Source: a virus
Taxonomy: Duplodnaviria; Heunggongvirae; Uroviricota; Caudoviricetes
IMG/VR virus record: IMGVR_UViG_3300017565_000017
Coordinates: 779-64,778 of that record
Strand: one strand, 5' to 3'
Length of the DNA: 64,000 bases
Shown here: positions 1 to 12,033 of the stretch, piece after piece
How the letters are laid out: each line of letters opens with the position of its first letter
Numbering within the stretch: the first letter of the stretch is position 1
The notes under the pieces: generated by a model
Databases searched by the model: none
What the model saw: only the letters and a program-made list of their open reading frames with translations
What the model was told of the DNA's origin: nothing
Program-made: the position numbers and the translations under genes

Positions 1-1
1 T

Positions 2-190
2 ATGGCGCAACGCGCCGCTACCCATTTCGACCGCGATCAGCGCGCCGATGCACCTAGCGCGGATTACGTGGTGTTTTACGTGGAACCGTGGGGGCGCTGG
101 GTCGGCGCGATCAACCTTAGCCAACTGGTAAACCGCAAGCATTCGACGGGCGGGTATCTCGGGTTTTGCAAGGGTTTCTATACGTGGTAA
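2..190 (+). CDS. Hypothetical early protein, possibly 5'-truncated by the window edge
   Basis: ORF ends at TAA directly before the repeated hairpin/palindrome/terminator module, like the downstream cassettes. Confidence 0.5.
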   Translation: MAQRAATHFDRDQRADAPSADYVVFYVEPWGRWVGAINLSQLVNRKHSTGGYLGFCKGFYTW

Positions 191-209
191 GCCCGGGGCG
201 AAAGCCCCT

Positions 210-225
210 TGTTTCCCGTGAAACG
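210..225. promoter_or_regulatory. parS-like site, 2 mismatches (TGTTTCCCGTGAAACG)
   Basis: 14/16 match to the ParB/Spo0J parS consensus TGTTTCACGTGAAACA; same position (after stop, before terminator) as the two perfect copies. Confidence 0.6.
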
Positions 226-226
226 C

Positions 227-248
227 AAGCCCCCTAGCGGGGCTTTTT
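227..248 (+). terminator. Intrinsic terminator (repeat family AAGCCCC(C)TAGCGGGGCTTTT)
   Basis: GC stem plus T tract; near-identical copies at 882, 1260, 2328. Confidence 0.85.
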
Positions 249-251
249 GTA

Positions 252-275
252 TGCTATACTGTAGTCCCCTAACCC
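252..275 (+). promoter_or_regulatory. Early extended -10 promoter TGcTATACT plus CCCTAACCC leader box
   Basis: TGnTATACT followed by GTAGTCCCCTAACCC, repeated in the other cassettes. Confidence 0.75.
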
Positions 276-293
276 GTATAACAAGGCGATTCT

Positions 294-860
294 ATGGCCC
301 CCACGTATACCCCCACACAATCCACCATGGCGCGCATTGCTGCGGAATTTGACGCGACATTTAACGCCCTTACGGCCCCTGGCGTTATACCGGATTCGCA
401 CCTATCCCAATGGCAACGCGACGAATGCGACCCGGTAGAAACCCGCGAATTCATCGCATCCGCCCGCGCCCTGCCTTGCCTGTATAGCGTATGGCAAGGT
501 TGCACGGCATACCCCGATGATGCGCGTTATACGGGATTGGGTATCATCCAATCCGAAAGCGAACAAGCGCATTTGCTAGGCGAGTACATAAGCCCCGATA
601 ACGATATGGCCGTGTTTGAATGCTTTTTGCAAGAAAGCCCCGCGTATGTTGTCGGCATGGTTGCCGAATACATAGCCGCGCAGTACCGCACCGAAGGCCG
701 GTATGTCATGCCCGCCGAACGCCCCGCCGACTATGGCCCCGCGCAATGGGCGGCGGATCAAAGCGGCGAACTAACGTATAACCGTTTGCTTGAAATTGAG
801 CGGCATGTACCCGCTCAATTTTTGGCGATGCTGCATAACGTTTTCCGCGACATTAACTAG
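294..860 (+). CDS. Hypothetical early protein (188 aa)
   Basis: Fills the cassette between promoter and parS/terminator. Confidence 0.75.
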   Translation: MAPTYTPTQSTMARIAAEFDATFNALTAPGVIPDSHLSQWQRDECDPVETREFIASARALPCLYSVWQGCTAYPDDARYTGLGIIQSESEQAHLLGEYISPDNDMAVFECFLQESPAYVVGMVAEYIAAQYRTEGRYVMPAERPADYGPAQWAADQSGELTYNRLLEIERHVPAQFLAMLHNVFRDIN

Positions 861-864
861 CCCG

Positions 865-880
865 TGTTTCACGTGAAACA
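865..880. promoter_or_regulatory. Perfect parS consensus site TGTTTCACGTGAAACA
   Basis: Perfect 16-bp palindrome (18 bp with flanking G/C) identical to the chromosomal parS consensus; intergenic. Confidence 0.75.
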
Positions 881-881
881 C

Positions 882-904
882 AAGCCCCCTAGCGGGGCTT
901 TTTT
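882..904 (+). terminator. Intrinsic terminator
   Basis: AAGCCCCC-TAGC-GGGGCTT followed by TTTT. Confidence 0.85.
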
Positions 905-946
905 GCATTGGGGTTTGTCCTAGGTGTACGCCACGGCCCTAAACCG

Positions 947-990
947 TGTTATACTAGTTGCACGTTAACCAAAACGGTTAACGCCTAACC
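947..990 (+). promoter_or_regulatory. Early extended -10 promoter TGtTATACT with CCTAACC box
   Basis: TGTTATACT 947-955, CCTAACC 984-990, GGAG SD before ATG 1003. Confidence 0.65.
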
Positions 991-1002
991 GGAGTTATAC
1001 AA

Positions 1003-1254
1003 ATGGCCTTACACGACCTGTCCCGCATGGATGCAAGCGACGCCTACGACGAAACCCAAATGCGCGACGATATCCGCGACGGCGATATTATCCGCGTGGT
1101 TAGCGGTGTCGTTATCATGGTGCAAGCGTGGCCCGTGCTGGTATGGGGCGATGCTTGCGAATGCTTCCAAACGCTTGCCCCCGGCTTTACGTGGGATATG
1201 GTAGAGAATGGCAAGTATGCCGATGCGGCCCGCCAAGCCCTAGCACTACAGTAA
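1003..1254 (+). CDS. Hypothetical early protein (83 aa)
   Basis: GGAG SD; single-gene cassette. Confidence 0.75.
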   Translation: MALHDLSRMDASDAYDETQMRDDIRDGDIIRVVSGVVIMVQAWPVLVWGDACECFQTLAPGFTWDMVENGKYADAARQALALQ

Positions 1255-1259
1255 AACAC

Positions 1260-1284
1260 AAGCCCCTAGCGGGGCTTTTCTTTT
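1260..1284 (+). terminator. Intrinsic terminator
   Basis: AAGCCCC-TAGC-GGGGCTT then TTCTTTT. Confidence 0.85.
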
Positions 1285-1318
1285 GGCCTAACCCCCTTGC
1301 GCACGTGGCCCGAAACCG

Positions 1319-1343
1319 TGTTATACTGTAGTCCCCTAACCCC
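1319..1343 (+). promoter_or_regulatory. Early extended -10 promoter plus leader box
   Basis: TGTTATACTGTAGTCCCCTAACCCC. Confidence 0.75.
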
Positions 1344-1356
1344 TAGGTATAACAAC

Positions 1357-1839
1357 ATGGCACAAAGTCTAGTTCAACAGGCGCGATTTATGCAGGCGGC
1401 AGGCGTTAACACTTACCCCCTAGTGCATGCGGCCCTAATCGGCATTCTTACCGCGCTGGATGTTGCCCCGCTTACCCCTTCGCGCTTTGCGCAAACGCCC
1501 CTTGTGCAATGGCCTGTCGTGCTATACGCGGCGCGGGATACGTGGGCCGTAGAACATATGGATATGTTGGCCGAACCCGATACGCCGCCCGTAGCCCCTG
1601 GCGTTAGCCCGCTTATGGCGCTAGAGGTACGTTTGTCGCAAAACCCGGCGCAAAACTTGCCCCGGTTTATCAATGCCGTATCCGAATTGGTACGCGACGG
1701 GCAACGGTATAACACCGATGGGCGCGGCGGGCAGGCCCTAGCGCTAGGTGTCGCGCCCGAAGTTGCCGCCAGCTTTTACCGGGATTACGCCGTGCCTATC
1801 CTTGATGATATCGCCAATGGTACTCTGATTCGCACGTAA
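1357..1839 (+). CDS. Hypothetical early protein (start moved to ATG 1357)
   Basis: The track start at 1297 lies upstream of the promoter; ATG 1357 follows the conserved GGTATAAC leader. Confidence 0.75.
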   Translation: MAQSLVQQARFMQAAGVNTYPLVHAALIGILTALDVAPLTPSRFAQTPLVQWPVVLYAARDTWAVEHMDMLAEPDTPPVAPGVSPLMALEVRLSQNPAQNLPRFINAVSELVRDGQRYNTDGRGGQALALGVAPEVAASFYRDYAVPILDDIANGTLIRT

Positions 1840-1845
1840 AACACC

Positions 1846-1864
1846 GGGGGCGCAAGCCCCTTTT
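1846..1864 (+). terminator. Intrinsic terminator, GNRA loop
   Basis: GGGGC-GCAA-GCCCC-TTTT. Confidence 0.75.
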
Positions 1865-1867
1865 GCA

Positions 1868-1891
1868 TGCTATACTGTAGCCCCCTAACCC
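1868..1891 (+). promoter_or_regulatory. Early extended -10 promoter plus leader box
   Basis: TGCTATACTGTAGCCCCCTAACCC. Confidence 0.75.
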
Positions 1892-1906
1892 TATAGGTAT
1901 AACCCC

Positions 1907-2305
1907 ATGCGAACGCCGCCCGTTACCTGCTTTCAGATTGAAAACGCCTTTAAGCTACTGGCTAAGGTATGCGAAGCGCCCGAAGCCGAACGCGCCGCCT
2001 ATTTCCCGCTTACTACGCAAGCCCTAACGCATGGGTATAACGCGGAAATGATCGGGGTTGCCGAACCCCCTAGCGCTGAATGGTTGGCGCAAGAAATAGC
2101 CGATCACGTGCGCAGTATGCCGCGCTGTTTCGCCTTGCTAGAATGCTGGCTTGCCGACAACCCTAAGCATATCCACCGGGCAGGCTTGTTTAATATGGCG
2201 CTGGCGGGTTATATCTCGGGCGAACCCGGCCTAACCGCTTATGCGCCATTGCGTACCGCATTGCCTATCGCTATACGCGCCTGCCTTGATGACGCATGGC
2301 GATAG
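1907..2305 (+). CDS. Hypothetical early protein (132 aa)
   Basis: Single-gene cassette. Confidence 0.75.
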   Translation: MRTPPVTCFQIENAFKLLAKVCEAPEAERAAYFPLTTQALTHGYNAEMIGVAEPPSAEWLAQEIADHVRSMPRCFALLECWLADNPKHIHRAGLFNMALAGYISGEPGLTAYAPLRTALPIAIRACLDDAWR

Positions 2306-2310
2306 CCCCT

Positions 2311-2326
2311 TGTTTCACGTGAAACA
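2311..2326. promoter_or_regulatory. Perfect parS consensus site TGTTTCACGTGAAACA
   Basis: Perfect 16-bp palindrome, intergenic, directly before the terminator. Confidence 0.75.
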
Positions 2327-2327
2327 C

Positions 2328-2353
2328 AAGCCCCCTAGCGGGGCTTTTCTTTT
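2328..2353 (+). terminator. Intrinsic terminator
   Basis: AAGCCCCCTAGCGGGGCTTTTCTTTT. Confidence 0.85.
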
Positions 2354-2365
2354 ACCCCGTTTTCG

Positions 2366-2390
2366 TGTTATACTGTAGTCCCCTAACCCC
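2366..2390 (+). promoter_or_regulatory. Early extended -10 promoter plus leader box
   Basis: TGTTATACTGTAGTCCCCTAACCCC; leader nearly identical to that of ORF 1907. Confidence 0.75.
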
Positions 2391-2405
2391 TATAGGTATA
2401 ACCCC

Positions 2406-2705
2406 ATGCCTCAAAATATGATCGACCTAGCACTAGCTAACCCTGGCCTTGCGGCGGGCTATGCGTTTGTGCTGTATGCCATGCTGTACGGCGTAGTAAT
2501 GGCCCGTGTCAATCGCCAGCGCCGTATACTTATCGCGGCCACGCAACGCAAAGCGCGGGGCCTGCCTAACGGGGCCGTTATCCCCGTACCGTATCGCCCT
2601 AACTGGTTTATCCGCGTATGGCCCGATACCGGCATTCGCATAGCCCTAGCCCTTGTGATTGTGGGCGATATCGGGCACATGGTGTATAACCGCCTAACCC
2701 TCTAG
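2406..2705 (+). CDS. Hypothetical membrane protein (99 aa, 2 predicted TM helices)
   Basis: Hydrophobic segments LAAGYAFVLYAMLYGVVM and IRIALALVIVGDI separated by a basic loop. Confidence 0.7.
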   Translation: MPQNMIDLALANPGLAAGYAFVLYAMLYGVVMARVNRQRRILIAATQRKARGLPNGAVIPVPYRPNWFIRVWPDTGIRIALALVIVGDIGHMVYNRLTL

Positions 2706-2923
2706 GGCAGGGCAACCCCCTAACCCGTCAACGCATAGCAGCAGCAGCAGCGCACGGGTTAGGGCTTACCCCCATACCCCATAGGGGGGGGGCGATCACA
2801 GGCGGGTTAGGGTTTTTACCCATGGCCCGCGATTTTGGGTTTTTTGCTATGACGAGTTTTACAGAAACCTCTGTTATACAAACATAGACTCCAGAAAACT
2901 TATGACCCATCTGACCGACTCAG

Positions 2924-2968
2924 GGGGTGTACCCGTGTTCTATCCAGTTTTCCTGGAGGTACCATTCG
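2924..2968 (+). repeat. Structured repeat GGGGTGTACC-N24-GGTACCATTCG, copy 1
   Basis: Conserved ends; inner hairpin TCCAG/CTGGA. Confidence 0.75.
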
Positions 2969-3056
2969 GGGTTTAGAGGAATAAATTCCTCAGCCGTATG
3001 ACGATTTTTGCACAGACCGTAAACTAGAGGTTTCCAACCTCCAAAAGCGCACCCCT

Positions 3057-3614
3057 ATGGATATAAACACTCAATATCTCGATGAGGGACCTCTGGACGA
3101 CGGTAGTGAACGGTGGGCCTCTATAGACGAAATGTATGCAGTTTCTGACCATGGGCGCGTATGGGCAGCGTATGTGCCTCAGAACCAAACCTGGGACGGC
3201 ATGGAACTGATGGTTCTCAATGGACGACCGGGAATTCTGAAGAAATTTTTCCTAGATCGCTACGGCTACCAGCAAGTAATGCTGCGTGAGCGTAAGATGT
3301 TAGTCCACCGACTAGTAGCCCTATCCTTCATAGCGAATCCAATGTCCTACCCTATGGTACTCCACCAGGATGGGAACCCAACTCACAACTGGTTCCGTAA
3401 TCTACGTTGGGGAAACGCCCGTATGAACACAAGGGACGCACAGACCCATGGAACCTACAGAAACGGGACTGGCCGCATTCCAAAGCAGGATCTGTACAGT
3501 GTAGACCTACTGTATGAAATGGTAGACAGAGGACTTCCTAATAAGAAGATTGCTCGTATGTTCGGCATAGCTCCATCCACCGTTCGCTACCGAGTTAAGA
3601 ACCGCCCTCAATAG
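3057..3614 (+). CDS. NUMOD4-HNH homing endonuclease with C-terminal HTH
   Basis: YAVSDHGRV (NUMOD4-like); VHRLVALSF..VLHQDGNPTHNWFRNLRWGNARMN (HNH_3); IARMFGIAPSTVRY (HTH). Confidence 0.9.
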   Translation: MDINTQYLDEGPLDDGSERWASIDEMYAVSDHGRVWAAYVPQNQTWDGMELMVLNGRPGILKKFFLDRYGYQQVMLRERKMLVHRLVALSFIANPMSYPMVLHQDGNPTHNWFRNLRWGNARMNTRDAQTHGTYRNGTGRIPKQDLYSVDLLYEMVDRGLPNKKIARMFGIAPSTVRYRVKNRPQ

Positions 3615-3658
3615 GGGTGTACCTCCTTAGAACTCATTCCTGAGTCTGGTACCATTCG
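3614..3658 (+). repeat. Structured repeat, copy 2
   Basis: GGGGTGTACC-N24-GGTACCATTCG; inner hairpin ACTCA/TGAGT; starts at the last base of the HNH stop codon. Confidence 0.75.
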
Positions 3659-3758
3659 CCCTATAGACCCGGATTTGCAAGCAAATCCTAAGACCTATTA
3701 GAACGGACTCTAACGCTCGGTTTTATGGCCCGCTTTACGCCGTAAAGCTAGCGCCCCC

Positions 3759-3802
3759 TGTACAAAACCCCACAAACAAGGGTAGTATGGCAAGCCCTAA
3801 CC
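3759..3802 (+). promoter_or_regulatory. Putative sigma70-like promoter with CCCTAACC box
   Basis: TGTACA-18-TAGTAT; CCCTAACC 3795-3802; perfect inverted repeat GCTTTACG-C-CGTAAAGC at 3732-3748 just upstream. Confidence 0.45.
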
Positions 3803-3824
3803 AAAACAGCGCCCGCATAAGCCC

Positions 3825-4193
3825 ATGGCAGACCAAGATTTGCAGACAAATCCTAACCGTTCCCAACAGATGAAGCAACTGGAGTCGTTCTTCAACCGAC
3901 CCGACCTGGACCCAGCAGACCGGGCTTACGCTCTACGCATTGTTCGTCAGATTGAAGAACAGTCCTATCCTGTTCCGGTCACTGCCCGTATCCTGAGCGA
4001 GCACCCTCTCCAGGCTCTACTTAGCTGGATCTTCACGTGGGGGCGGGTACGTGTATGGATCCGTAATCAAACGGTAGTCGTGACCACTATACGCAACGAC
4101 GGTACAGAGGTGGTCCATGAGAACATTGGGATCAAAGGTGACTTCCGTATCCCTATGGCCCTGGCACTCTCACACACGGATTTGCTGGACTGA
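3825..4193 (+). CDS. H[PT]D-motif paralogue family protein
   Basis: 122 aa, ends LALSHTDLLD. Confidence 0.75.
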   Translation: MADQDLQTNPNRSQQMKQLESFFNRPDLDPADRAYALRIVRQIEEQSYPVPVTARILSEHPLQALLSWIFTWGRVRVWIRNQTVVVTTIRNDGTEVVHENIGIKGDFRIPMALALSHTDLLD

Positions 4194-4204
4194 GGACCTA
4201 AACT

Positions 4205-4573
4205 ATGCTCGATACCATAGCCGACCCCAACTGGTCGGTCATCAGTCATCAGGTGCAAACCAATATGGAGCACCTGCCGGAGACTGTCCGGAGACGCTTC
4301 CTAAGCGTTAACGTAGGTCTGTCGTTTTACGGCCTCCCTCCACCTCAGGTCATGAACCTGACCTCCAGCTGCGCAAATCTGATCTGGAACTATAACTCCA
4401 CGGTCCGCGTCTTCACCTGGGCGACACCTGAAGGCATAGGAGCTCGGGTCAAAGACGTACTGACTGGTGAGTTTCTATATCAGGTCGGTGACGATGTGGA
4501 CACTATTGTAGACTTTGTTATACGACATGCGAGCCACCCTGACCTGATTAACAACCTGAAGACTCCCCTGTAA
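4205..4573 (+). CDS. H[PT]D-motif paralogue family protein
   Basis: 122 aa; DPNW, YGLPPP, SHPDLI. Confidence 0.8.
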   Translation: MLDTIADPNWSVISHQVQTNMEHLPETVRRRFLSVNVGLSFYGLPPPQVMNLTSSCANLIWNYNSTVRVFTWATPEGIGARVKDVLTGEFLYQVGDDVDTIVDFVIRHASHPDLINNLKTPL

Positions 4574-4574
4574 G

Positions 4575-5006
4575 ATGGAACTCGATAACCCCACCTGGGA
4601 CCAGATCATAGAACTGGTCCAGAAGATGCCTAGTCTCAACCCTCATATACGGGACACCTTCCACATCTTTACCCAGATGGCTCAGAACTACAGAGTGCCG
4701 TCTCCGTGGCGCGTGTACTCCCCCGATCCTCGTACGCTGGAATCCAGTCCAGGGTCGAGTGCGCAACCTAAAGTCCAGATCTTCTTTCCGCAAGGCGTAT
4801 ACATGGCAATCCGGCCCGCTGCATTTTATGTGGGGCAGCTTGTGATCCGGCCTCGGCTGGATGTCCGCATCGAGCAGACGGGGACATGGCACGACGTGAT
4901 TGTCGAACTCAAGAGGCTGATCGGTCACGCAGATGACTACACGCTAGACTACCACCTGGACATACCCTGGACTAGCAAAGATCTGGCGTCATTGATCAAG
5001 AAGTAG
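4575..5006 (+). CDS. Probable H[PT]D family member with degenerate motif
   Basis: 143 aa; N-terminal DNPTWDQII like the 6725 protein; C-terminal GHADDY. Confidence 0.75.
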   Translation: MELDNPTWDQIIELVQKMPSLNPHIRDTFHIFTQMAQNYRVPSPWRVYSPDPRTLESSPGSSAQPKVQIFFPQGVYMAIRPAAFYVGQLVIRPRLDVRIEQTGTWHDVIVELKRLIGHADDYTLDYHLDIPWTSKDLASLIKK

Positions 5007-5024
5007 TCCAGAAGGTGGATCTAG

Positions 5025-5070
5025 GGGGTGTACCCCCCTTTCAGACTCTAGATCCTAGAGGTACCATTCG
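5025..5070 (+). repeat. Structured repeat, copy 3
   Basis: GGGGTGTACC-N25-GGTACCATTCG; inner hairpin CTCTAG/CTAGAG. Confidence 0.75.
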
Positions 5071-5107
5071 GGCTTTACCTCCTATTTTTGTTATACGGTA
5101 CGGGTAA

Positions 5108-5158
5108 TTGTTATACAGGGCAAAGCGTGGTAACATAGGCCGCAAGTAACCCCTAACC
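5108..5158 (+). promoter_or_regulatory. Putative sigma70-like promoter with CCCTAACC box
   Basis: TTGTTA-17-TAACAT with TGn; TTGTTATAC direct repeat at 5088 and 5108; CCCTAACC 5151-5158. Confidence 0.55.
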
Positions 5159-5174
5159 TATAAACCCGCTGCCC

Positions 5175-5519
5175 ATGCCCCAATTTCTAAACCCCGACCT
5201 ACTGACCTCCATATACGAGTTGGGAATCCACGGTCCCAGTTCCGTGTACGTTCATAACCTATGCACGGCTGGCATTCAGGTGGCTCATACCCGGCTGGGA
5301 CCACCTCCTGTCATGTCCTTGAACCGCACCCTTGTCCGGCTCTGGTATCCTCAGCATAAGTTGTGTCTTGCCCTTCGGGGTCGCCACGTGTGGGCCTTTT
5401 CCAGAATGGTCCCCATTCGTCAGATTAGCAGTACGGAATACCTGTTCCGGCTCCGTGGCACTCGTGATCTGTTGAGCGCTATCGATCAACATCTGGGTCA
5501 GCGAGCCGTTCATGGGTAA
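5175..5519 (+). CDS. Hypothetical protein (114 aa), possible array member lacking the motif
   Basis: Follows the promoter; GPPPVM segment resembles its neighbours; overlaps the next ORF by 8 nt. Confidence 0.65.
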   Translation: MPQFLNPDLLTSIYELGIHGPSSVYVHNLCTAGIQVAHTRLGPPPVMSLNRTLVRLWYPQHKLCLALRGRHVWAFSRMVPIRQISSTEYLFRLRGTRDLLSAIDQHLGQRAVHG

Positions 5520-5937
5520 GATTTGGCGCATAGCCAGCAATTGGAACTGGGACAAGATTCGCGAATACGCACAGACCATGGATCTGGAGGAGGTCTCCAG
5601 GGAACAATCTCTCTGGGTCCTAAAACAGGCGAGTTCTCTGGTCAAACCCCCGGAGCTAGTTGTAGCTACCCCCGAAATCACGGTCTTGACCTGGTATCCT
5701 AACCCTAATCAGGTACGGGATCACACCGAGATGAAGATCCATCTTGAGGACTACGCGCCCAAGGGTTCCGTGTACGAGTTTGAGCCGCACGCCGTATTTC
5801 CTGAGCTGAAACAAAGAGCAGTTGGGGCCACGGACACTCTAGCCCTCCTCGTGACCCAACTTCTTCACCCGGACTTGATTGCCAGACCTGGGAATCTGGT
5901 CTACACTGTAACAGGATGTAACGATGCCGAGAGCTAA
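5512..5937 (+). CDS. H[PT]D-motif paralogue family protein
   Basis: 141 aa; LLHPDLI. Confidence 0.8.
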   Translation: MGKIWRIASNWNWDKIREYAQTMDLEEVSREQSLWVLKQASSLVKPPELVVATPEITVLTWYPNPNQVRDHTEMKIHLEDYAPKGSVYEFEPHAVFPELKQRAVGATDTLALLVTQLLHPDLIARPGNLVYTVTGCNDAES

Positions 5938-6334
5938 ACCCCGGGACTGGAACGACGTCAAGTTCGCGATCCACAACTACGGTATTGACGAGGACACCCG
6001 AGCGTGTGCCCTCCAGACGGTTAAAGGACTAACGGATCGAGGTGTGGCCCTGCCTTCGTGGGTTATCCTAACGGACCGGGAACCAGACGACATTAAGCGC
6101 ACAGAGCCTCGTATTGCTCTGGTGTGGGAACCCTCGAAAGCGGCTTCGTACCCATTCCTGGTCGTCTACCACGACCGATGCACGGTCGGCCACTATGAGG
6201 CCGAGACCTACACGGCGGTTCTCCTGGATAACGAAGCTCGGGACACGCAGGATACTATGGTGCTGATTCGCGCCCTCGCAGCCTATCTTATCCACCCTGA
6301 TGTGGTGACCACCAACGAGGAATACCAGCGATGA
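5924..6334 (+). CDS. H[PT]D-motif paralogue family protein
   Basis: 136 aa; RGVALPS, LIHPDVV. Confidence 0.8.
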   Translation: MPRAKPRDWNDVKFAIHNYGIDEDTRACALQTVKGLTDRGVALPSWVILTDREPDDIKRTEPRIALVWEPSKAASYPFLVVYHDRCTVGHYEAETYTAVLLDNEARDTQDTMVLIRALAAYLIHPDVVTTNEEYQR

Positions 6335-6735
6335 GCAGCATTCTCATTCGAGATCCCAAGCCATCTGACGTGCGCGTCCAACTCCTGGAATGGATACAGC
6401 CGTACCAGCCTCAGGCGGCGCACATTCTTTTGAGGGCAAGCCAACGACTTCGTGCTCATGGGGTGTCGCCTGTAATGCTTGCCCGGTATGGTGCGGATGC
6501 TCAGCGGTCGAACGTAGTGCTTCATTACCATATGAAGCCCAACCCCAACATTCCGCACGTTTTGTTCCTGCACACGGAATCCATTCGCAAGACAGTGCTC
6601 ATGACAGGCTACCGGAAGATTCCGAATAACTACGAATCTATCTCCAAAGACTACGACACGTGGCCCGCGCTTGTCCAGGATGCCTACGCCCGTCTTGTTC
6701 ACCCTGATATGGTGCCCATCATAGATGGCCTCTGA
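6331..6735 (+). CDS. H[PT]D-motif paralogue family protein
   Basis: 134 aa; ATGA coupling; LVHPDMV. Confidence 0.8.
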   Translation: MSSILIRDPKPSDVRVQLLEWIQPYQPQAAHILLRASQRLRAHGVSPVMLARYGADAQRSNVVLHYHMKPNPNIPHVLFLHTESIRKTVLMTGYRKIPNNYESISKDYDTWPALVQDAYARLVHPDMVPIIDGL

Positions 6736-7105
6736 ACTCACAATCCTAGAAGATCCGACCTGGGAACAGGTGACTGAGACTGTGTTGAGCAGGCTGACCA
6801 AGACCCAGGATCCACAGGCAATACGCAATAAGGTGCGTATCGTGCTCTTGAGACTTCAGATGGCGGGTCTCATAGACCCGCCCTCCATGGGCCGCATTGG
6901 GTCTGTCAGAGGTAGCCTCACTTGGCAACTGACCATCCCGTATTACCACCGGGTGACCTTCGTCTTTTCCAATGAATACTTCGGATGGGTTATGAACAGA
7001 CCTTACTTCTGGGTCAAGGAAGGTCCCGATGCTCAGACCCCCGATCAGGTAGCAGATGACCTGATTTTTCACCTGTCCCATACGGACTTTGCAACAACCA
7101 ACTGA
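6725..7105 (+). CDS. H[PT]D-motif paralogue family protein
   Basis: 126 aa; EDPTWEQV, AGLIDPP, LSHTDFA. Confidence 0.8.
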   Translation: MASELTILEDPTWEQVTETVLSRLTKTQDPQAIRNKVRIVLLRLQMAGLIDPPSMGRIGSVRGSLTWQLTIPYYHRVTFVFSNEYFGWVMNRPYFWVKEGPDAQTPDQVADDLIFHLSHTDFATTN

Positions 7106-7110
7106 CGATT

Positions 7111-7638
7111 ATGCCCTATACCTCTACCATTGATGTGAAAGACGCTTACCTGACCGACAACCTGCCGATGCTGGTGAGCAAAGCGCTTGCCGGTAAGACG
7201 CTGCTTGTGAGCTGCGAGTTCGACAGCCTAGGCTTCTACTACTCGGTCTTGACCTACCTGGAACAGGACAAGCACCCGGAATTCGGCACCGAAGCTCATT
7301 TCCGTACCCGCTCCTGGATCGACATGGTGCCCGTCGCTCAAGGCTTTCTCCGTTCGGGCGGGGGTGACATCGTTTACGCTCCGAAAGGTCGCGTGGCGCA
7401 CACTCTGGCTCAACATGCGCTTGAAAACGACGAGGCGAACGCCATCACCGAAGCAGCGCTGCTGCTCCACGAAGACCACCTTGCCCACCTGAAAGCCCAT
7501 CCGAACATGGACGCCCAAGTTCTGGACGCCATCGAGCGGGGATCCAAGGAAGTTGAGCAGTGGCGTGCTCAGTTGGAAGCCGAATTTGCTGCCGCCGACG
7601 CGGAATCCGGATCCAGCGAAAAGCCGGTGCTCCACTGA
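7111..7638 (+). CDS. Hypothetical protein (175 aa), second paralogue family
   Basis: N-terminal half resembles the 8888 protein (LTD..LV..ALAGKTLLV vs LTSD..VV.LLQEGKKLLV). Confidence 0.75.
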   Translation: MPYTSTIDVKDAYLTDNLPMLVSKALAGKTLLVSCEFDSLGFYYSVLTYLEQDKHPEFGTEAHFRTRSWIDMVPVAQGFLRSGGGDIVYAPKGRVAHTLAQHALENDEANAITEAALLLHEDHLAHLKAHPNMDAQVLDAIERGSKEVEQWRAQLEAEFAAADAESGSSEKPVLH

Positions 7639-7997
7639 TGGCCGACTACGACGGCACTTGGCCTTCGGCCCGGCTACATATCTACGCGACTAATCTATCG
7701 CCCGTGGATAAGCACCGTCTGGGCTACGTGTTCACGTGTCTCCGACGCTATGGGTGCCCCGCGCCTACCCGAATGCTTCACCCTATGGAGCAGCCGAACG
7801 AAGGCATCGGATTCGTGTGGGATCAGTTCGGCCGACGCATGTACTTGGGCCAGCGTCGTGGACAGCCTAGTGTCTTGCGTATGTACACCCCCGGTACACC
7901 CATGGGTGTTCAGCGCTATTCAGGGCTCCCTCCGCACGACACCATAGACCTGCTCATGCAGGCTCTCAACCATCCAGATCTATTGACAACCGTATGA
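7638..7997 (+). CDS. H[PT]D-motif paralogue family protein (start moved to ATG 7638)
   Basis: TGATG overlap; RYGCPAP, LNHPDLL. Confidence 0.8.
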   Translation: MADYDGTWPSARLHIYATNLSPVDKHRLGYVFTCLRRYGCPAPTRMLHPMEQPNEGIGFVWDQFGRRMYLGQRRGQPSVLRMYTPGTPMGVQRYSGLPPHDTIDLLMQALNHPDLLTTV

Positions 7998-8362
7998 GCG
8001 GAAAGTTCCAATTCAAAGACTGGGATTCTTACATAGACGAGGCTGTCACCATTGGTGAATCTTCCGTGGCTCGTCTACGGATTCGAAGTGCTTTTCGCAG
8101 ACTTTCACTCATGGGGTGCCCGCCACCTGACCTGATGTTGCGAGGCCCCGGATCGAATGTACTTTTCTGGCGACCTCATCAGGTCGGGACCCACGTCCGT
8201 CTTCTGATAGACAGCGATACGATGGCCGTGCTCAAAACGTTCCCGGCCCATTCGATGCCTACTGGGAACACCACGGTGGATCCGTTGCTGGTACTTTTCC
8301 CTCTGATCGCCATGACTCTAACTCACACCGACCTCGTTCCAGAACCTGCTCGGTGCGTGTAA
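7994..8362 (+). CDS. H[PT]D-motif paralogue family protein
   Basis: ATGA coupling; LMGCPPP, LTHTDLV. Confidence 0.8.
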   Translation: MSGKFQFKDWDSYIDEAVTIGESSVARLRIRSAFRRLSLMGCPPPDLMLRGPGSNVLFWRPHQVGTHVRLLIDSDTMAVLKTFPAHSMPTGNTTVDPLLVLFPLIAMTLTHTDLVPEPARCV

Positions 8363-8367
8363 ATAGT

Positions 8368-8416
8368 TTGCGCTGCCCTGGGGTTAGCTGTATAATATTG
8401 CTTTACACCCTAACCC
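8368..8416 (+). promoter_or_regulatory. sigma70-like promoter with CCCTAACCC box
   Basis: TTGCGC-17-TATAAT; CCCTAACCC 8408-8416. Confidence 0.7.
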
Positions 8417-8435
8417 CAGCTATAAAAGGCGCGCT

Positions 8436-8879
8436 ATGGATATTGGTCGCAGCTCCAAGGAGTTCAGTTCCACGTTTGACCAGCACTATGTGGCTATGGG
8501 AACCAGCGATTTGGATTCGTTGATTACCATGATGAAGGACCCGGAGCGCCGCATCGTGCTCTTCACGGCGGTTGACCCGGAGATTCTGATTGCCAGCATC
8601 ACGATCTGCGCCCTGGATATCACAGTCGACGAATTTACCTCGAACATGGCGCACTACCTCAACGCGGGCCAGGAATACATGAACCTGTCCGGCGATAACC
8701 AGCGCCGCATTGGTTTCTACAAGCGCGCGACCATCAACGTCGAAGACGCTGTCAAGAGCTACACCCAAGCGACCGGACACGCGCCTCAGTACATCCTTTA
8801 TTTCGACCCGGAGCTGGAAGATACAGTCAAGACGGCCACTGGCAAGACTCTGAAAGAAGCGTCAGTCACTCGTCACTAG
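8436..8879 (+). CDS. Hypothetical protein (147 aa)
   Basis: Follows the promoter; weak resemblance to the 7111/8888 proteins. Confidence 0.75.
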   Translation: MDIGRSSKEFSSTFDQHYVAMGTSDLDSLITMMKDPERRIVLFTAVDPEILIASITICALDITVDEFTSNMAHYLNAGQEYMNLSGDNQRRIGFYKRATINVEDAVKSYTQATGHAPQYILYFDPELEDTVKTATGKTLKEASVTRH

Positions 8880-8887
8880 GAGCGGAT

Positions 8888-9358
8888 ATGCCTGTTCTTG
8901 AGAATACCAACATTGAAATCCTGCTGACCTCTGATCCCAAGCGCGTGGTGCATCTTCTCCAAGAAGGTAAGAAGCTTCTGGTCCAGACGTGGCGTGGGGC
9001 CAGTGATATCATGTCCTACGCGGTCCAGCACCTGTCGGGGATGACTATCGCACAGGCCAAGGAAAAGGGCATCAGCGACCAGGAGCTGTTTAACCTCGTC
9101 AGCACGCGCATGCACGCGAACGGCGGCTCCATGTATTTCGGAGACCGGACAATTATGCCGGGTTCCATGATTGACCAGTATGTGGCCCGGAAAGGTCACG
9201 AGCCTGATATGTTCATCTTTTTTCTACCGGAAGGTGCGGATAAACTGGCGGCTGCCATAGACCCAGAACTTATCACCAAATATCTGGAGCCGGAAGCCGA
9301 GAAGGCTCCCGACCCGTGGGCGAGTGCTACCCACGGCGCACCCGCTACTCCGCAGTAG
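8888..9358 (+). CDS. Hypothetical protein (156 aa), second paralogue family
   Basis: GGAG SD; similarity to the 7111 protein. Confidence 0.75.
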   Translation: MPVLENTNIEILLTSDPKRVVHLLQEGKKLLVQTWRGASDIMSYAVQHLSGMTIAQAKEKGISDQELFNLVSTRMHANGGSMYFGDRTIMPGSMIDQYVARKGHEPDMFIFFLPEGADKLAAAIDPELITKYLEPEAEKAPDPWASATHGAPATPQ

Positions 9359-9365
9359 GAAGACC

Positions 9366-9722
9366 ATGAATCTCAACAATATCGAAGAGCTGATGCAGGT
9401 CTTCCGGACACGACTTACCCAGGAAGAGGCGGATGCGCTGCGGGCTAGTCTCGCAATTCTCGTACAGAATTGGCCTCTTGACGCGGCTATGACACGTGAT
9501 ACCCACAAGAGCTCTGCGTTCATTGTTTTGTGGTCAGAGGCTACCGACCTTATTAAGTCTCCGTGGACCCTCCGGATCGGCCGCGATGGCGAATACTACG
9601 CGGAGACGTATGACTTGAATGACCCAACCATTGAGCTGGAAGATATAACTACCAAGGACCCCGTGGAAGTTGTGGATTTCTTCCTCCATCACCTTTCTCA
9701 CCCGGATTTGGTGGTCAAATGA
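9366..9722 (+). CDS. H[PT]D-motif paralogue family protein (start moved to ATG 9366)
   Basis: AGGA SD; ends FLHHLSHPDLVVK. Confidence 0.8.
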   Translation: MNLNNIEELMQVFRTRLTQEEADALRASLAILVQNWPLDAAMTRDTHKSSAFIVLWSEATDLIKSPWTLRIGRDGEYYAETYDLNDPTIELEDITTKDPVEVVDFFLHHLSHPDLVVK

Positions 9723-10135
9723 CAGCCCGTCCTTTTATGCAAGCGGCATGGGACGCCATTGACCCCCAGAAATCTGAGGCAGCGGAATCTATTTCCACCG
9801 AGCTGATGATGGTGCTGGCTCCGCTTCTGGCCTATTGGCCGAAAATGCTTGGCTGCCCTAACATCAGTGTGACCGTATCTGACGCTAACATGCCTCACGG
9901 GACCGTTGTTCGTATGGGGTTTATGACGAACCTCAATCGGCCTAAGCGCCCAAAATACGGGGTACTGACGTTCGGCGTTGACTCTGATGCAGAAAGTGTT
10001 AGGATACACGAATACGATTGTAGTCTTCACGTGATGGCAGAGCGCCAACTTACTTCCCTTACCGATCTTCTGGACTACCTGACTGTCACTTGGACCCACA
10101 CGGATATCCCCCATGACTCAGACCCAAATGCCTGA
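9719..10135 (+). CDS. H[PT]D-motif paralogue family protein
   Basis: ATGA coupling; ends LTVTWTHTDIPHDSDPNA. Confidence 0.75.
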   Translation: MTARPFMQAAWDAIDPQKSEAAESISTELMMVLAPLLAYWPKMLGCPNISVTVSDANMPHGTVVRMGFMTNLNRPKRPKYGVLTFGVDSDAESVRIHEYDCSLHVMAERQLTSLTDLLDYLTVTWTHTDIPHDSDPNA

Positions 10136-10376
10136 CCCGCTTCTGGCGCGGCTCCAAGAAGAAGGCTATACCCATGTGCGTGTTCTGCCGGACGGTACGT
10201 ATGCTGGTATCGGCCGACTGGCTTTCACAGTTGCCCTGTACACGAAGCTCACTGATATCGGTTGGAGCCGCCGATTTTGCTATGAGAGCCTGACCGATGC
10301 TCTAGTAGGGTTGGTTGAACTCAAGTCCTGGGATGACGAGCCGGACCCGGTCTACATTGCTCGCCGACCGGAGTAA
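10128..10376 (+). CDS. Hypothetical phage protein (about 82 aa)
   Basis: Compact ORF overlapping the previous stop; EEGY..VRVLPDG...RRFCYE looks like a recurring small phage protein (from memory). Confidence 0.7.
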   Translation: MPDPLLARLQEEGYTHVRVLPDGTYAGIGRLAFTVALYTKLTDIGWSRRFCYESLTDALVGLVELKSWDDEPDPVYIARRPE

Positions 10377-10379
10377 TGC

Positions 10380-10424
10380 TTTACACGCCAGCGCAACCCT
10401 GTTTATAATAGGCCATTACCTAAC
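10380..10424 (+). promoter_or_regulatory. sigma70-like promoter with CCTAAC box
   Basis: TTTACA-18-TATAAT; CCTAAC 10419-10424. Confidence 0.65.
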
Positions 10425-10447
10425 TATCGTATAAAAGGATTTTCGGT

Positions 10448-11155
10448 ATGCCTATTTCCAACCTTCGCGAACTCACCATGGGTGCTGACTCGGAATCGGG
10501 TCCTGTACTTATCGGTAAGTACCTGACCCAGGACCTGGACAAGGAAGTGGCGTCTCTGGATCTGACGGACCTCATGCCTTCGGGTCCGGGCAACCCACCC
10601 CTGATCAACGGTCTGATCTCGTTGCTGAAAATCTCCATGTCTCAGGAGAATCACGACGAGTCACTACGTTCCTGCGCGGAGCGTGTGGGCAATGACTTAG
10701 GCATTGACCTTACTGTGCCTGAGCTGCCGGAAGATATGAAAGCACTTAACAAGAAAGTGCGTCAAGCATATCTTGATCTGCGCGGGCGTCATCTGGAGAT
10801 CCTGAACAAGCACGGCGGCGCGGCTGACCAAGTGATGGACGCCTACAAGGAACTGGATCGGGGTACGATTACCCTCCACCAGTTCTATGCCATTGCCAAG
10901 CTCTATGCGAAGCGGGCGTTTACCCATAAATACATGGAAGACCGCCTGAGTACCCGAGACAAGAAAATTCTGCTGGACCCTAACAACCCCGAGCTCCAGA
11001 CTGTGGTGAAGGAGCTGGCTACTATTCTGCAACTTATGGATGACGCAAAAGTCTCGGACGACAAGAAGACGATGCCTACGTCCGAAGACGCATCCCGCAT
11101 TGTGGATATGGTACGCACCGTGCTGAAAGGTAAAACCGATGTTCCAAACAACTGA
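10448..11155 (+). CDS. Hypothetical alpha-helical protein (235 aa)
   Basis: AAGGA SD; follows the promoter. Confidence 0.75.
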   Translation: MPISNLRELTMGADSESGPVLIGKYLTQDLDKEVASLDLTDLMPSGPGNPPLINGLISLLKISMSQENHDESLRSCAERVGNDLGIDLTVPELPEDMKALNKKVRQAYLDLRGRHLEILNKHGGAADQVMDAYKELDRGTITLHQFYAIAKLYAKRAFTHKYMEDRLSTRDKKILLDPNNPELQTVVKELATILQLMDDAKVSDDKKTMPTSEDASRIVDMVRTVLKGKTDVPNN

Positions 11156-11543
11156 CATTCAGGCCCATGGCGTAACGTGGGCTCTTGACTATATCAAGAG
11201 CAAACTGCGCCACGACATGGACGCCCTTAGCATGAGCGACCTGCTCGCTGATGATGTTGCTCCGCCTTTTTATCAGGTGCTGGCATTCGTCTACGAAATG
11301 CGCCGCAACTGCGATGCCCACCAGCGGGTCTACGGCCCTACGGATTTGACGTTCCACGCTAACTTGCAAGCGCGTAACGCGCTTCAGATGATGCGTGCTG
11401 CCCAGATTCGCGTGGTGCGTCCCCAGATTCACCGGGATTTGGATGCACTCCACTCACAACTCGAATCCAACAAGATGCAGATCCTGGAAGGCATGTTTCG
11501 CATGCACGAGCTGACTGCGGGCCGGGAGATTATCCATGTCTGA
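11139..11543 (+). CDS. Hypothetical protein (134 aa)
   Basis: Overlaps both neighbours; weak similarity to the 11536 protein. Confidence 0.7.
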   Translation: MFQTTDIQAHGVTWALDYIKSKLRHDMDALSMSDLLADDVAPPFYQVLAFVYEMRRNCDAHQRVYGPTDLTFHANLQARNALQMMRAAQIRVVRPQIHRDLDALHSQLESNKMQILEGMFRMHELTAGREIIHV

Positions 11544-12033
11544 CCGCTACTTAACTACCGAGGATCTCCATAAGATCGAGAGTGATACGGAGATCCTCAC
11601 GCTGCTCGTCAACTTAGCGATAGCCCTGTCGCCCGACTCTGATTTGCGAATGCAAGTCGAGGACTGGCGAACTGATTTGCACGCGCCGCATCGCATTCCG
11701 CCAGTTGCCCCGACCGTGGGGTTCATTTGTGTAGCGCTCAAGCAGGCTGTAGGCTTCCTGACGCTTATTCAAGACACAGACCCGAGTTCGGTAGTTTCAG
11801 ACGAAGGTTCGATCGGTACATATACCGAACGTATGCAGCAGGTTCGCACAATGGCTACTCAGTGCTTACGCCTGCTGAAAGACCGTCACTTTGAAGTCTT
11901 GGAGCCAATGCCTATTGAGATTCAGATTGAGCTGGAGAATCTGTATTTGCGTGCAGAGGCTCTTACGGTAGAACCCGGTGTGGTGCGGGACGGATTGTTC
12001 TCGCTCACCTTAAAAGCGATGGTGGGAAAATGA
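11536..12033 (+). CDS. Hypothetical protein (165 aa)
   Basis: GGGAG SD; operonic packing. Confidence 0.7.
   Translation: MSDRYLTTEDLHKIESDTEILTLLVNLAIALSPDSDLRMQVEDWRTDLHAPHRIPPVAPTVGFICVALKQAVGFLTLIQDTDPSSVVSDEGSIGTYTERMQQVRTMATQCLRLLKDRHFEVLEPMPIEIQIELENLYLRAEALTVEPGVVRDGLFSLTLKAMVGK

Follow-up and report, generated by a model that had tools for sequence, protein, structure and literature searches.

The 64,000-nucleotide stretch of phage DNA analyzed here (the window: positions 779 to 64,778 of the IMG/VR virus record IMGVR_UViG_3300017565_000017) contains a short intergenic element, present three times near its left end, that is, to judge from how it is conserved, a selected cis-acting site. 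Nine further copies lie at the same locus in four related uncultivated phages, giving 12 copies in five phages. We tentatively favor an explanation in which the element would be a boundary module of early transcription units in a jumbo phage that depends on the host RNA polymerase (RNAP), with its identical blocks doubling as joints for the recombination of gene cassettes. By protein sequence, the source is a jumbo phage of the phiRSL1/BcepSauron/Motura group, its portal protein being 45 to 50% identical to those of Burkholderia phages BcepSauron and BcepSaruman, Ralstonia phage phiRSL1, and Achromobacter phage Motura.

How sharply is the element defined? An original prediction, made from the letters of the window, had described three copies with fixed ends, and the pattern GGGGTGTACC-N24/24/25-GGTACCATTCG indeed matches exactly on the + strand at 2924-2968, 3614-3658, and 5025-5070 (copies W1, W2, and W3), with no match in 100 shuffled sequences. 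These are the only copies in the 242,859-bp genome that contains the window, all of them inside 2.2 kb, and their number stays at three when two mismatches are allowed in each arm or when a covariance model built from the 12 copies is applied at E ≤ 1. Similarity between the surroundings of W1, W2, and W3 is confined to a unit of ~45 to 60 nt. All three are intergenic, as had also been predicted, with W2 sharing one base with the stop codon of the open reading frame (ORF) 3057-3614.

The relatives that carry the other nine copies (L026, L033, L035, and L039) were reached by protein look-ups and profile searches with neighboring ORFs. A profile search with the upstream 99-aa ORF led to L039 and L040, as well as to the short contigs L037 and L038, which end before the element locus. 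Over most of the region, L033 matches the window at 92 to 100% identity. It lacks the endonuclease gene, and its two copies (R1 and R2) flank the same three-ORF cassette as W2 and W3. L026 has three copies (Q1 to Q3), with a gene 61% identical to the window's endonuclease gene between Q1 and Q2. The two copies of L035 (S1 and S2) stand in tandem, 150 nt apart with no ORF between them, and those of L039 (T1 and T2) each stand behind their own copy of a promoter. Beyond these phages, a relaxed pattern was absent from the cultured phages BcepSauron, phiRSL1, BCSR5, and Motura and from the nearest IMG/VR relative; exact-pattern scans of viral contigs gave no additional copies, a metagenome scan returned only a 5-kb contig of the same phage, and nucleotide searches with the region found no match among GenBank phages.

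Alignment of the 12 copies resolves three sequence blocks whose order on the transcribed strand does not change. Box 1 reads A-G4-5-TGTA-C4-5-TT and can form, as RNA, a G:C hairpin of 5 to 6 bp; Box 2, GG[T/C]A[C/A]C, follows after a spacer of 22 to 25 nt (30 nt in R1); and Box 3, YTWTAGAYC, lies 8 to 10 nt beyond Box 2, with a 20-nt palindromic hairpin inserted ahead of it in S1 and S2. The part of the right arm past GGTACC (ATTCG) is clade-specific.

What marks the element as a cis-acting site under selection, a claim of the original prediction that we uphold? Its arms are kept in four other phages while spacer and flanks diverge, and its GGTACC is kept against a genome-wide purge of that word. 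GGTACC is observed six times in the genome where 51 to 66 occurrences are expected, a roughly 10-fold avoidance, and three of the six are Box 2 copies, which is an unusually direct sign of selection on a noncoding site. Between the window and L033, the 450 nt near W2 at 3781-4230 are 100% identical, and the spacers of W2 and R1 differ by several changes and a 6-nt insertion between identical arms. Furthermore, the box variant is uniform within a genome and differs between genomes: GGCACC in both L039 copies, GGTACCCC with the same hairpin in both L035 copies, and GGTACCATTCG in all copies of the window and L033. Because the spacers are not homogenized along with the boxes, these shared variants favor a trans-acting reader of the boxes over gene conversion. 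A coding role was rejected, since the arms of W1 and W2 fall in different reading frames and the spacer varies in length. The words TAGAC, GGACC, and CTAGA showed no enrichment around the elements. Several other palindromic hexamers expected 52 to 85 times are also avoided in the genome, namely GGCGCC (2 occurrences), GGGCCC (2), CCGCGG (6), GCCGGC (6), GCTAGC (5), GTGCAC (5), and ATGCAT (4); the hexamer avoidance suggests pressure from several type II restriction systems.

How are the copies placed with respect to genes and promoters? The features of the window that bear on this question are the following:

2706-2880, no strand assigned: conserved noncoding junction, across which the frequency of TC+GA dinucleotides changes from ~0.05 on the left to ~0.13 on the right.
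2872-2880, + strand: TGTTATACA, a promoter-like site of the extended -10 type, read from sequence, which would read into W1.
2923-2979, + strand: copy W1, with Box 1 (A-GGGGG-TGTA-CCC) at 2922-2934, Box 2 GGTACC at 2958-2963, and Box 3 TTTAGA at 2972-2977; ~43 nt 3' of the TGTTATACA site and 88 nt 5' of the endonuclease start codon.
2934-2957, + strand: spacer of W1, with the hairpin TCCAG/CTGGA.
3057-3614, + strand: gene of a free-standing HNH homing endonuclease (185 aa), with W1 on its left and W2 on its right.
3613-3669, + strand: copy W2, whose Box 1 has as its first base the final one of the endonuclease stop codon (3614) and includes a G.U pair in its stem; hairpin ACTCA/TGAGT in the spacer, Box 2 at 3648-3653, and Box 3 TATAGA at 3662-3667.
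3825-5006, + strand: cassette of three ORFs (3825-4193, 4205-4573, and 4575-5006) between W2 and W3.
5024-5081, + strand: copy W3, with Box 1 GGGGG-TGTA-CCCCC, hairpin CTCTAG/CTAGAG in the spacer, Box 2 at 5060-5065, and a Box 3-like TTTACC at 5074-5079; 18 nt past the stop of ORF 4575-5006.
5089-5117, + strand: two TGTTATAC promoter-like sites (5089-5097 and 5109-5117), read from sequence.

Throughout the five phages, a copy lies either 0 to 18 nt past a stop codon and ahead of the next promoter (W2, W3, Q2, Q3, and R2 have such stop-codon positions) or 36 to 100 nt behind a promoter with no ORF intervening. Promoters of the TGTTATAC type follow W3, Q2, R2, and S2; the pair in the window begins ~20 nt 3' of W3, upstream of a CCTAACC leader and ORF 5175. 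Early genes of this phage have host-type TGnTATAC extended -10 sites and the CCTAACC leader, and a site equivalent to TGTTATACA stands ahead of the first element in every relative. On the explanation that we favor, the Box 1 hairpin in the nascent RNA would insulate one cassette from the next, whether as a weak terminator, an attenuator, or a 3'-end hairpin, and in W1 it would hold expression of the endonuclease low. Boxes 2 and 3 would be read by their sequence, by a putative factor. As direct repeats with 10 to 16 identical nt, the blocks would also offer enough homology to the phage recombination system for unequal crossover or the integration of a circle, and the endonuclease cassette, with an element copy of its own, could thereby have come to lie in front of the resident copy.

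The comparison of sister phages bears on the second half of this proposal: read from the aligned sequences, the element marks both ends of the differences between related phages, and its flanks are shuffled. Where L033 has a single element, the window has two. Aligned with L033, the window loses homology at 2881 and regains it precisely at 3614, where W2 begins. This gap implies that the window gained, relative to L033, one element-to-element period consisting of W1 and the endonuclease gene. W1 and Q2, the latter being the copy downstream of the endonuclease gene in L026, have the same sequence from Box 2 to Box 3. A GATTTGC...GCAAATC palindrome that follows W2 is found after Q1 in L026 and is missing from L033, W2 and Q3 have matching right flanks, and a T-rich tract with a TGTTATACGG promoter follows W3 in the window and Q2 in L026. 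Around W3 and R2, the window and L033 share an identical island that has a diverged ORF end on one side and a 40-nt indel on the other.

The gene gained with W1, which the original prediction had passed over, encodes a protein that matches PHROG 59 (E 9e-30) and combines an HNH catalytic part with a C-terminal, HTH_7-like helix-turn-helix. In L039, a different HNH endonuclease gene, whose product is 29% identical to the window's, begins 45 nt past T2 and is followed by no copy of the element. The locus provides a clean natural example of a homing endonuclease cassette that is present, absent, or replaced at one joint in sister phages. A side observation in L039 (5435-5745) is that promoter, leader, and element have been duplicated in tandem as one unit, giving T1 and T2, ahead of this HNH gene of different lineage (NUMOD4/HNH_3).

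Is the conserved feature a sequence or a fold? The original prediction had argued for a fold, and the corresponding alternative is an RNA or single-stranded DNA motif in which a GUACC/GGUAC outer stem encloses a hairpin of variable sequence and conserved structure. The window itself speaks for such a motif: as predicted, each of its three spacers has a hairpin of at least 5 bp within 0 to 2 nt of the right arm (chance ~0.02 per spacer and ~7e-6 jointly), ViennaRNA predicts this inner hairpin in all three copies, and the mean folding z-score of the spacers is -2.45. The additional copies, by which the prediction had proposed that it be judged, largely lack these properties. Their spacers have a mean z-score of about -0.9 (-1.2 over all 12 copies), and an adjacent hairpin of at least 5 bp is found in only 4 of the 12 spacers, with W3 and Q3 being mutual orthologs. 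The hairpin had been called covarying, but the three window spacers are simply different sequences, and the orthologs show decay rather than compensation, R1 (the ortholog of W2) and R2 (the ortholog of W3) having lost pairs without it. A compensatory change between W1 and Q2 (A-U to U-A) was considered and dropped, as it requires a register slip and a bulge. The outer stem fares no better: it is predicted only in copy 2, the z-scores of copies 1 and 3 as whole elements fall short of significance, and the stem is broken in 4 of the 12 copies, with every variant disrupting pairing and none compensating (GGCACC in T1 and T2, GGTAAC in Q1, and a left-arm insertion in Q2). The surrounding noncoding DNA is rich in unrelated palindromes, so hairpins are locally common.

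RNAalifold, applied to the 12 copies, recovered neither of these helices; its single consensus helix is a 5-bp G:C hairpin inside Box 1, in the left arm. This small hairpin appears in the minimum free energy fold of 5 of the 8 copies folded singly. It is still present in Q2, where the loop has changed from TGTA to AGTAG around a 5-bp stem, GGGGT/ACCCC, and W2 keeps it by way of a G.U pair, whose counterpart on the opposite strand would be an A.C mismatch. What is conserved is sequence plus one small hairpin, not a covarying fold, and we regard the folded motif as improbable. Searches of Rfam gave no overlap with the elements at E ≤ 10 in window positions 1-12000 and none at E ≤ 1 in the four relatives, in line with the earlier statement that no known family could be assigned. 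Among the functions that the original prediction had listed, a recombination site and a protein-binding site are still live readings; the structural argument behind the motif is not supported.

Several observations weigh against the boundary module. Only 2 to 4 U follow the Box 1 stem, and the U-tract is missing, as had been noted before: none of the three window copies passes a terminator scan that asks for at least 5 U in 8, a scan that the phage's canonical terminators do pass. Those terminators have 7-bp stems and U5 (AAGCCCC...GGGGCTTTTT), and termination at the element would be at best weak given the missing U-tract. There are only two to three copies per genome, at one locus, and other cassette boundaries in the same operon array (e.g., 8362-8436) have none. 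Box 1 is imperfect in W1 and W2, and in Q1 a C-run stands in place of the G-run and destroys the hairpin. A plain terminator model, moreover, gives no role to Box 2, Box 3, or the fixed length of the spacer. Crossovers within 10 to 16 nt of homology are suggested by the end-points of the differences, and an RNA 3' end at Box 1 is a prediction; the coverage by contigs from four RNA runs is limited to 2400-3000, is of low depth, and carries no information on the elements.

The main rival is a site on duplex DNA, at a domain border, for a sequence-specific phage or host protein, whether as an operator or as a domain-boundary, injection-pause, or partition-type site. The protein would then touch Boxes 1 to 3 at points roughly three helical turns from one another, with the hairpins incidental and recombination a secondary role. 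Conservation that resides in sequence with no covariation in pairing speaks for such a site, as does the position of Box 2, whose centre is 30 to 32 bp from that of Box 1 in 10 of the 12 copies. The uniformity of box variants within each genome would reflect co-evolution with a trans-acting factor, and both the retention of GGTACC despite its avoidance and the restriction of a few copies to one locus, at a conserved compositional boundary (described below), fit equally. However, the spacing of the Box 1 half-sites is shifted in Q2 by 1 to 3 nt with complementarity kept, which a hairpin would tolerate better than a dimeric binder, and the spacer of R1 is 6 nt longer. The model also names no candidate binding protein and does not require that copies abut stop codons or keep a constant orientation with transcription. 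We judge this explanation unlikely, though it deserves to be taken seriously. Less likely than either it or the boundary module are two further readings, a homing site and a promoter for a phage polymerase. Homing endonucleases usually target conserved sequence, and the element could be the homing site, or part of it, of the neighboring HNH family, with duplication a by-product of endonuclease-driven gene conversion; an HNH gene lies 45 to 90 nt 3' of a copy in three of the five phages, these genes belong to two lineages only 29% identical, and the presence/absence polymorphism is bounded by the element. Yet both copies that flank the gene in the window are intact, which would invite self-cutting if the boxes alone were the target. 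L033 and L035, which have no endonuclease, keep two copies each, R2 is far from the insertion point, no copy lies downstream of the L039 endonuclease, and conservation of the boxes reaches further than that of the endonuclease gene, all of which makes a homing site rather doubtful.

The promoter reading would make the element a recognition site for a phage RNAP or sigma factor, either as an N4-type hairpin (a hairpin promoter for a phage RNAP was an option raised by the original prediction) or in a T7/SP6-like form that runs from Box 2 to Box 3 (e.g., GGCACC-N9-TATAGA in T1). The constant gap of 8 to 10 nt from Box 2 to TATAGA or TTTAGA in 10 copies would suit it, as would the orientation of all copies toward downstream genes and a weak sigma70_r2-like ORF at 188 kb. 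That ORF, a 330-aa open frame outside the window (genome 188006-188185, - strand), has a Sigma70_r2 match at E 6e-5, below the curated cut-off, and may encode a phage sigma-like factor. But the genome has no match to an RNAP beta-type domain (PF00562) or to a T7-like RNAP (PF00940), the latter a weaker negative because the PF00940 control gave none either, and the relative phiRSL1 is blocked by rifampicin and has no RNAP gene of its own (PMC5468394). Three sites in 243 kb are far too few for the regulon of a polymerase or sigma factor, the 20-nt insertion in S1 and S2 separates Box 2 from Box 3, and host-type TGnTATAC promoters already serve the cassettes. This reading is very improbable, in its hairpin form as in the other. 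Three bacterial promoter readings of the element were also rejected, by eye: for sigma-70, TACCAT as a -10 box is not kept in L035 and L039; for sigma-32, CCCCCTT...CCAT is similar to the boxes, with a spacing 4 to 5 nt too long; and for sigma-54, the GG-N10-GC spacing fits W3 and R2 only.

Does the element belong to a known class? The boundary module most resembles the promoter-early stem-loops (PeSLs) of T4-type phages, in which stem-loops of the form Gn-loop-Cn terminate transcription, lie between early cassettes, and flank ORFs whose shuffling they mediate (Arbiol et al. 2010, PMC2839356; Comeau et al. 2014, PMC4122927). In both, the motifs are short, conserved, and intergenic, lie in early, hyperplastic regions between a stop codon and the next early promoter, and contain a stem-loop in which poly-G precedes poly-C; homing endonucleases are active in such regions. 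Indels and replacements between close relatives are likewise bounded by the motif (here between the window and L033 and in the flanks of L026), and the endonuclease cassette is one element-to-element period long. The element is nevertheless not a member of the PeSL family. It contains no sigma-70 promoter within the unit; promoters lie 20 to 130 nt away at a variable distance, with TGTTATAC at 32 nt (W3), 50 nt (Q2), or ~130 nt (W2) from the start of Box 2. It has two extra boxes, GGTACC and the TATAGA-like one, at a fixed distance from the stem-loop, and two to three copies at one locus of each genome in place of the dozens of PeSLs. It also has no U-tract, and terminator activity or mini-circles of the PeSL kind would be predictions here. 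If our favored explanation holds, linker-mediated cassette shuffling of the T4 type would also operate in an unrelated jumbo phage lineage, by means of a linker that is bipartite and locus-specific.

Two other classes are partly similar. Like Rho-independent terminators, the element has a G:C-rich hairpin right after stop codons, on the transcribed strand, with U residues behind it; the stem, however, is 5 bp long, 2 to 4 U follow, and sequence past the hairpin is conserved. Integron attC sites share with it short conserved ends around a variable, dyad-symmetric center and an arrangement of one site per cassette, all in direct orientation, with the number of sites tracking that of cassettes (2, 2, and 3 in L035, L033, and the window). 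The ends are nonetheless GGGGTGTACC and GGTACC rather than the RYYYAAC/GTTRRRY cores, no inverted pair of ends is maintained (the GGCACC variants are uncompensated), and the cassettes bear their own promoters. Serine and tyrosine recombinases, for which PF00239 and PF00589 were used with positive controls for both, had no match in the genome.

How does the locus relate to the wider organization of the genome? In the window and in all four relatives, the first element lies ~50 to 150 nt past a step in TC+GA frequency, which is located at ~2700-2880 in the window (centered near 2800), ~2300-2500 in L026, ~330-500 in L033, ~6100-6290 in L035, and ~5300-5540 in L039. The low values to the left of the step include coding DNA. 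The TC/GA-poor block occupies the first 3.6 kb of the record and is the only such block in its 243 kb; in L035 and L039, at least 5 to 6 kb of TC/GA-poor DNA precede the first element. Within the junction, the order is an (AGC)n run, CCCCTAGGGGGG, a terminator-like hairpin, and then the TGTTATACA site. The position of the first copy at a sharp, conserved step points to a two-domain organization of these genomes, so far unexplored.

A functional analogy is offered by the first-step-transfer (pre-early) DNA of phage T5, which has noncoding repeat regions that include the injection stop signal region and which, in some relatives and not in others, are split by an inserted HNH endonuclease gene (Davison, bioRxiv 10.1101/866236). 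As in T5, a conserved noncoding cluster of repeats here lies at the inner border of single-gene units of pre-early type, the repeats are better conserved than the adjoining ORFs, and an HNH gene splits them in some relatives. The two clusters differ in that they have no sequence similarity, DnaA boxes are absent here, and the T5 repeats are long inverted or direct ones of 66 to 131 bp; two-step injection in the present phages would be hypothetical. By this analogy, the element cluster and its upstream junction might together form a cis-acting domain boundary, read by a dedicated protein, at the inner end of at least 6 kb of TC/GA-poor pre-early DNA. We think it a long shot. The DNA on the two sides could be differently modified, and the boundary could act as an injection-pause, modification-boundary, or insulation signal like that of the T5 region.

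The record is incomplete on its left side (window position 1 is genome position 779). A near-identical contig, L025 (1-418), extends 418 nt further and enters another TC/GA-poor cassette; contigs of ~251 kb from the same phage exist. The TC/GA-poor cassettes also contain perfect TGTTTCACGTGAAACA palindromes, which are parS-like and lie between a stop codon and a terminator (window 865-880 and 2311-2326), with one more at the very start of the genome record. Other palindromes accompany individual element copies. An 18-bp palindrome, GGATTTGCAAGCAAATCC, follows W2 (3671-3688), with related copies at the start of ORF 3825 (3836-3854) and after Q1 (L026 2445-2466); it may be operator-like or mobile. 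In L035, an 18-bp hairpin palindrome, GGACCAGC-TT/AA-GCTGGTCC, follows Box 2 of both copies (6335-6354 and 6486-6505), its loop dinucleotide flipped between them (TT in one and AA in the other), and a third, partial copy lies 30 nt further on (6533-6550).

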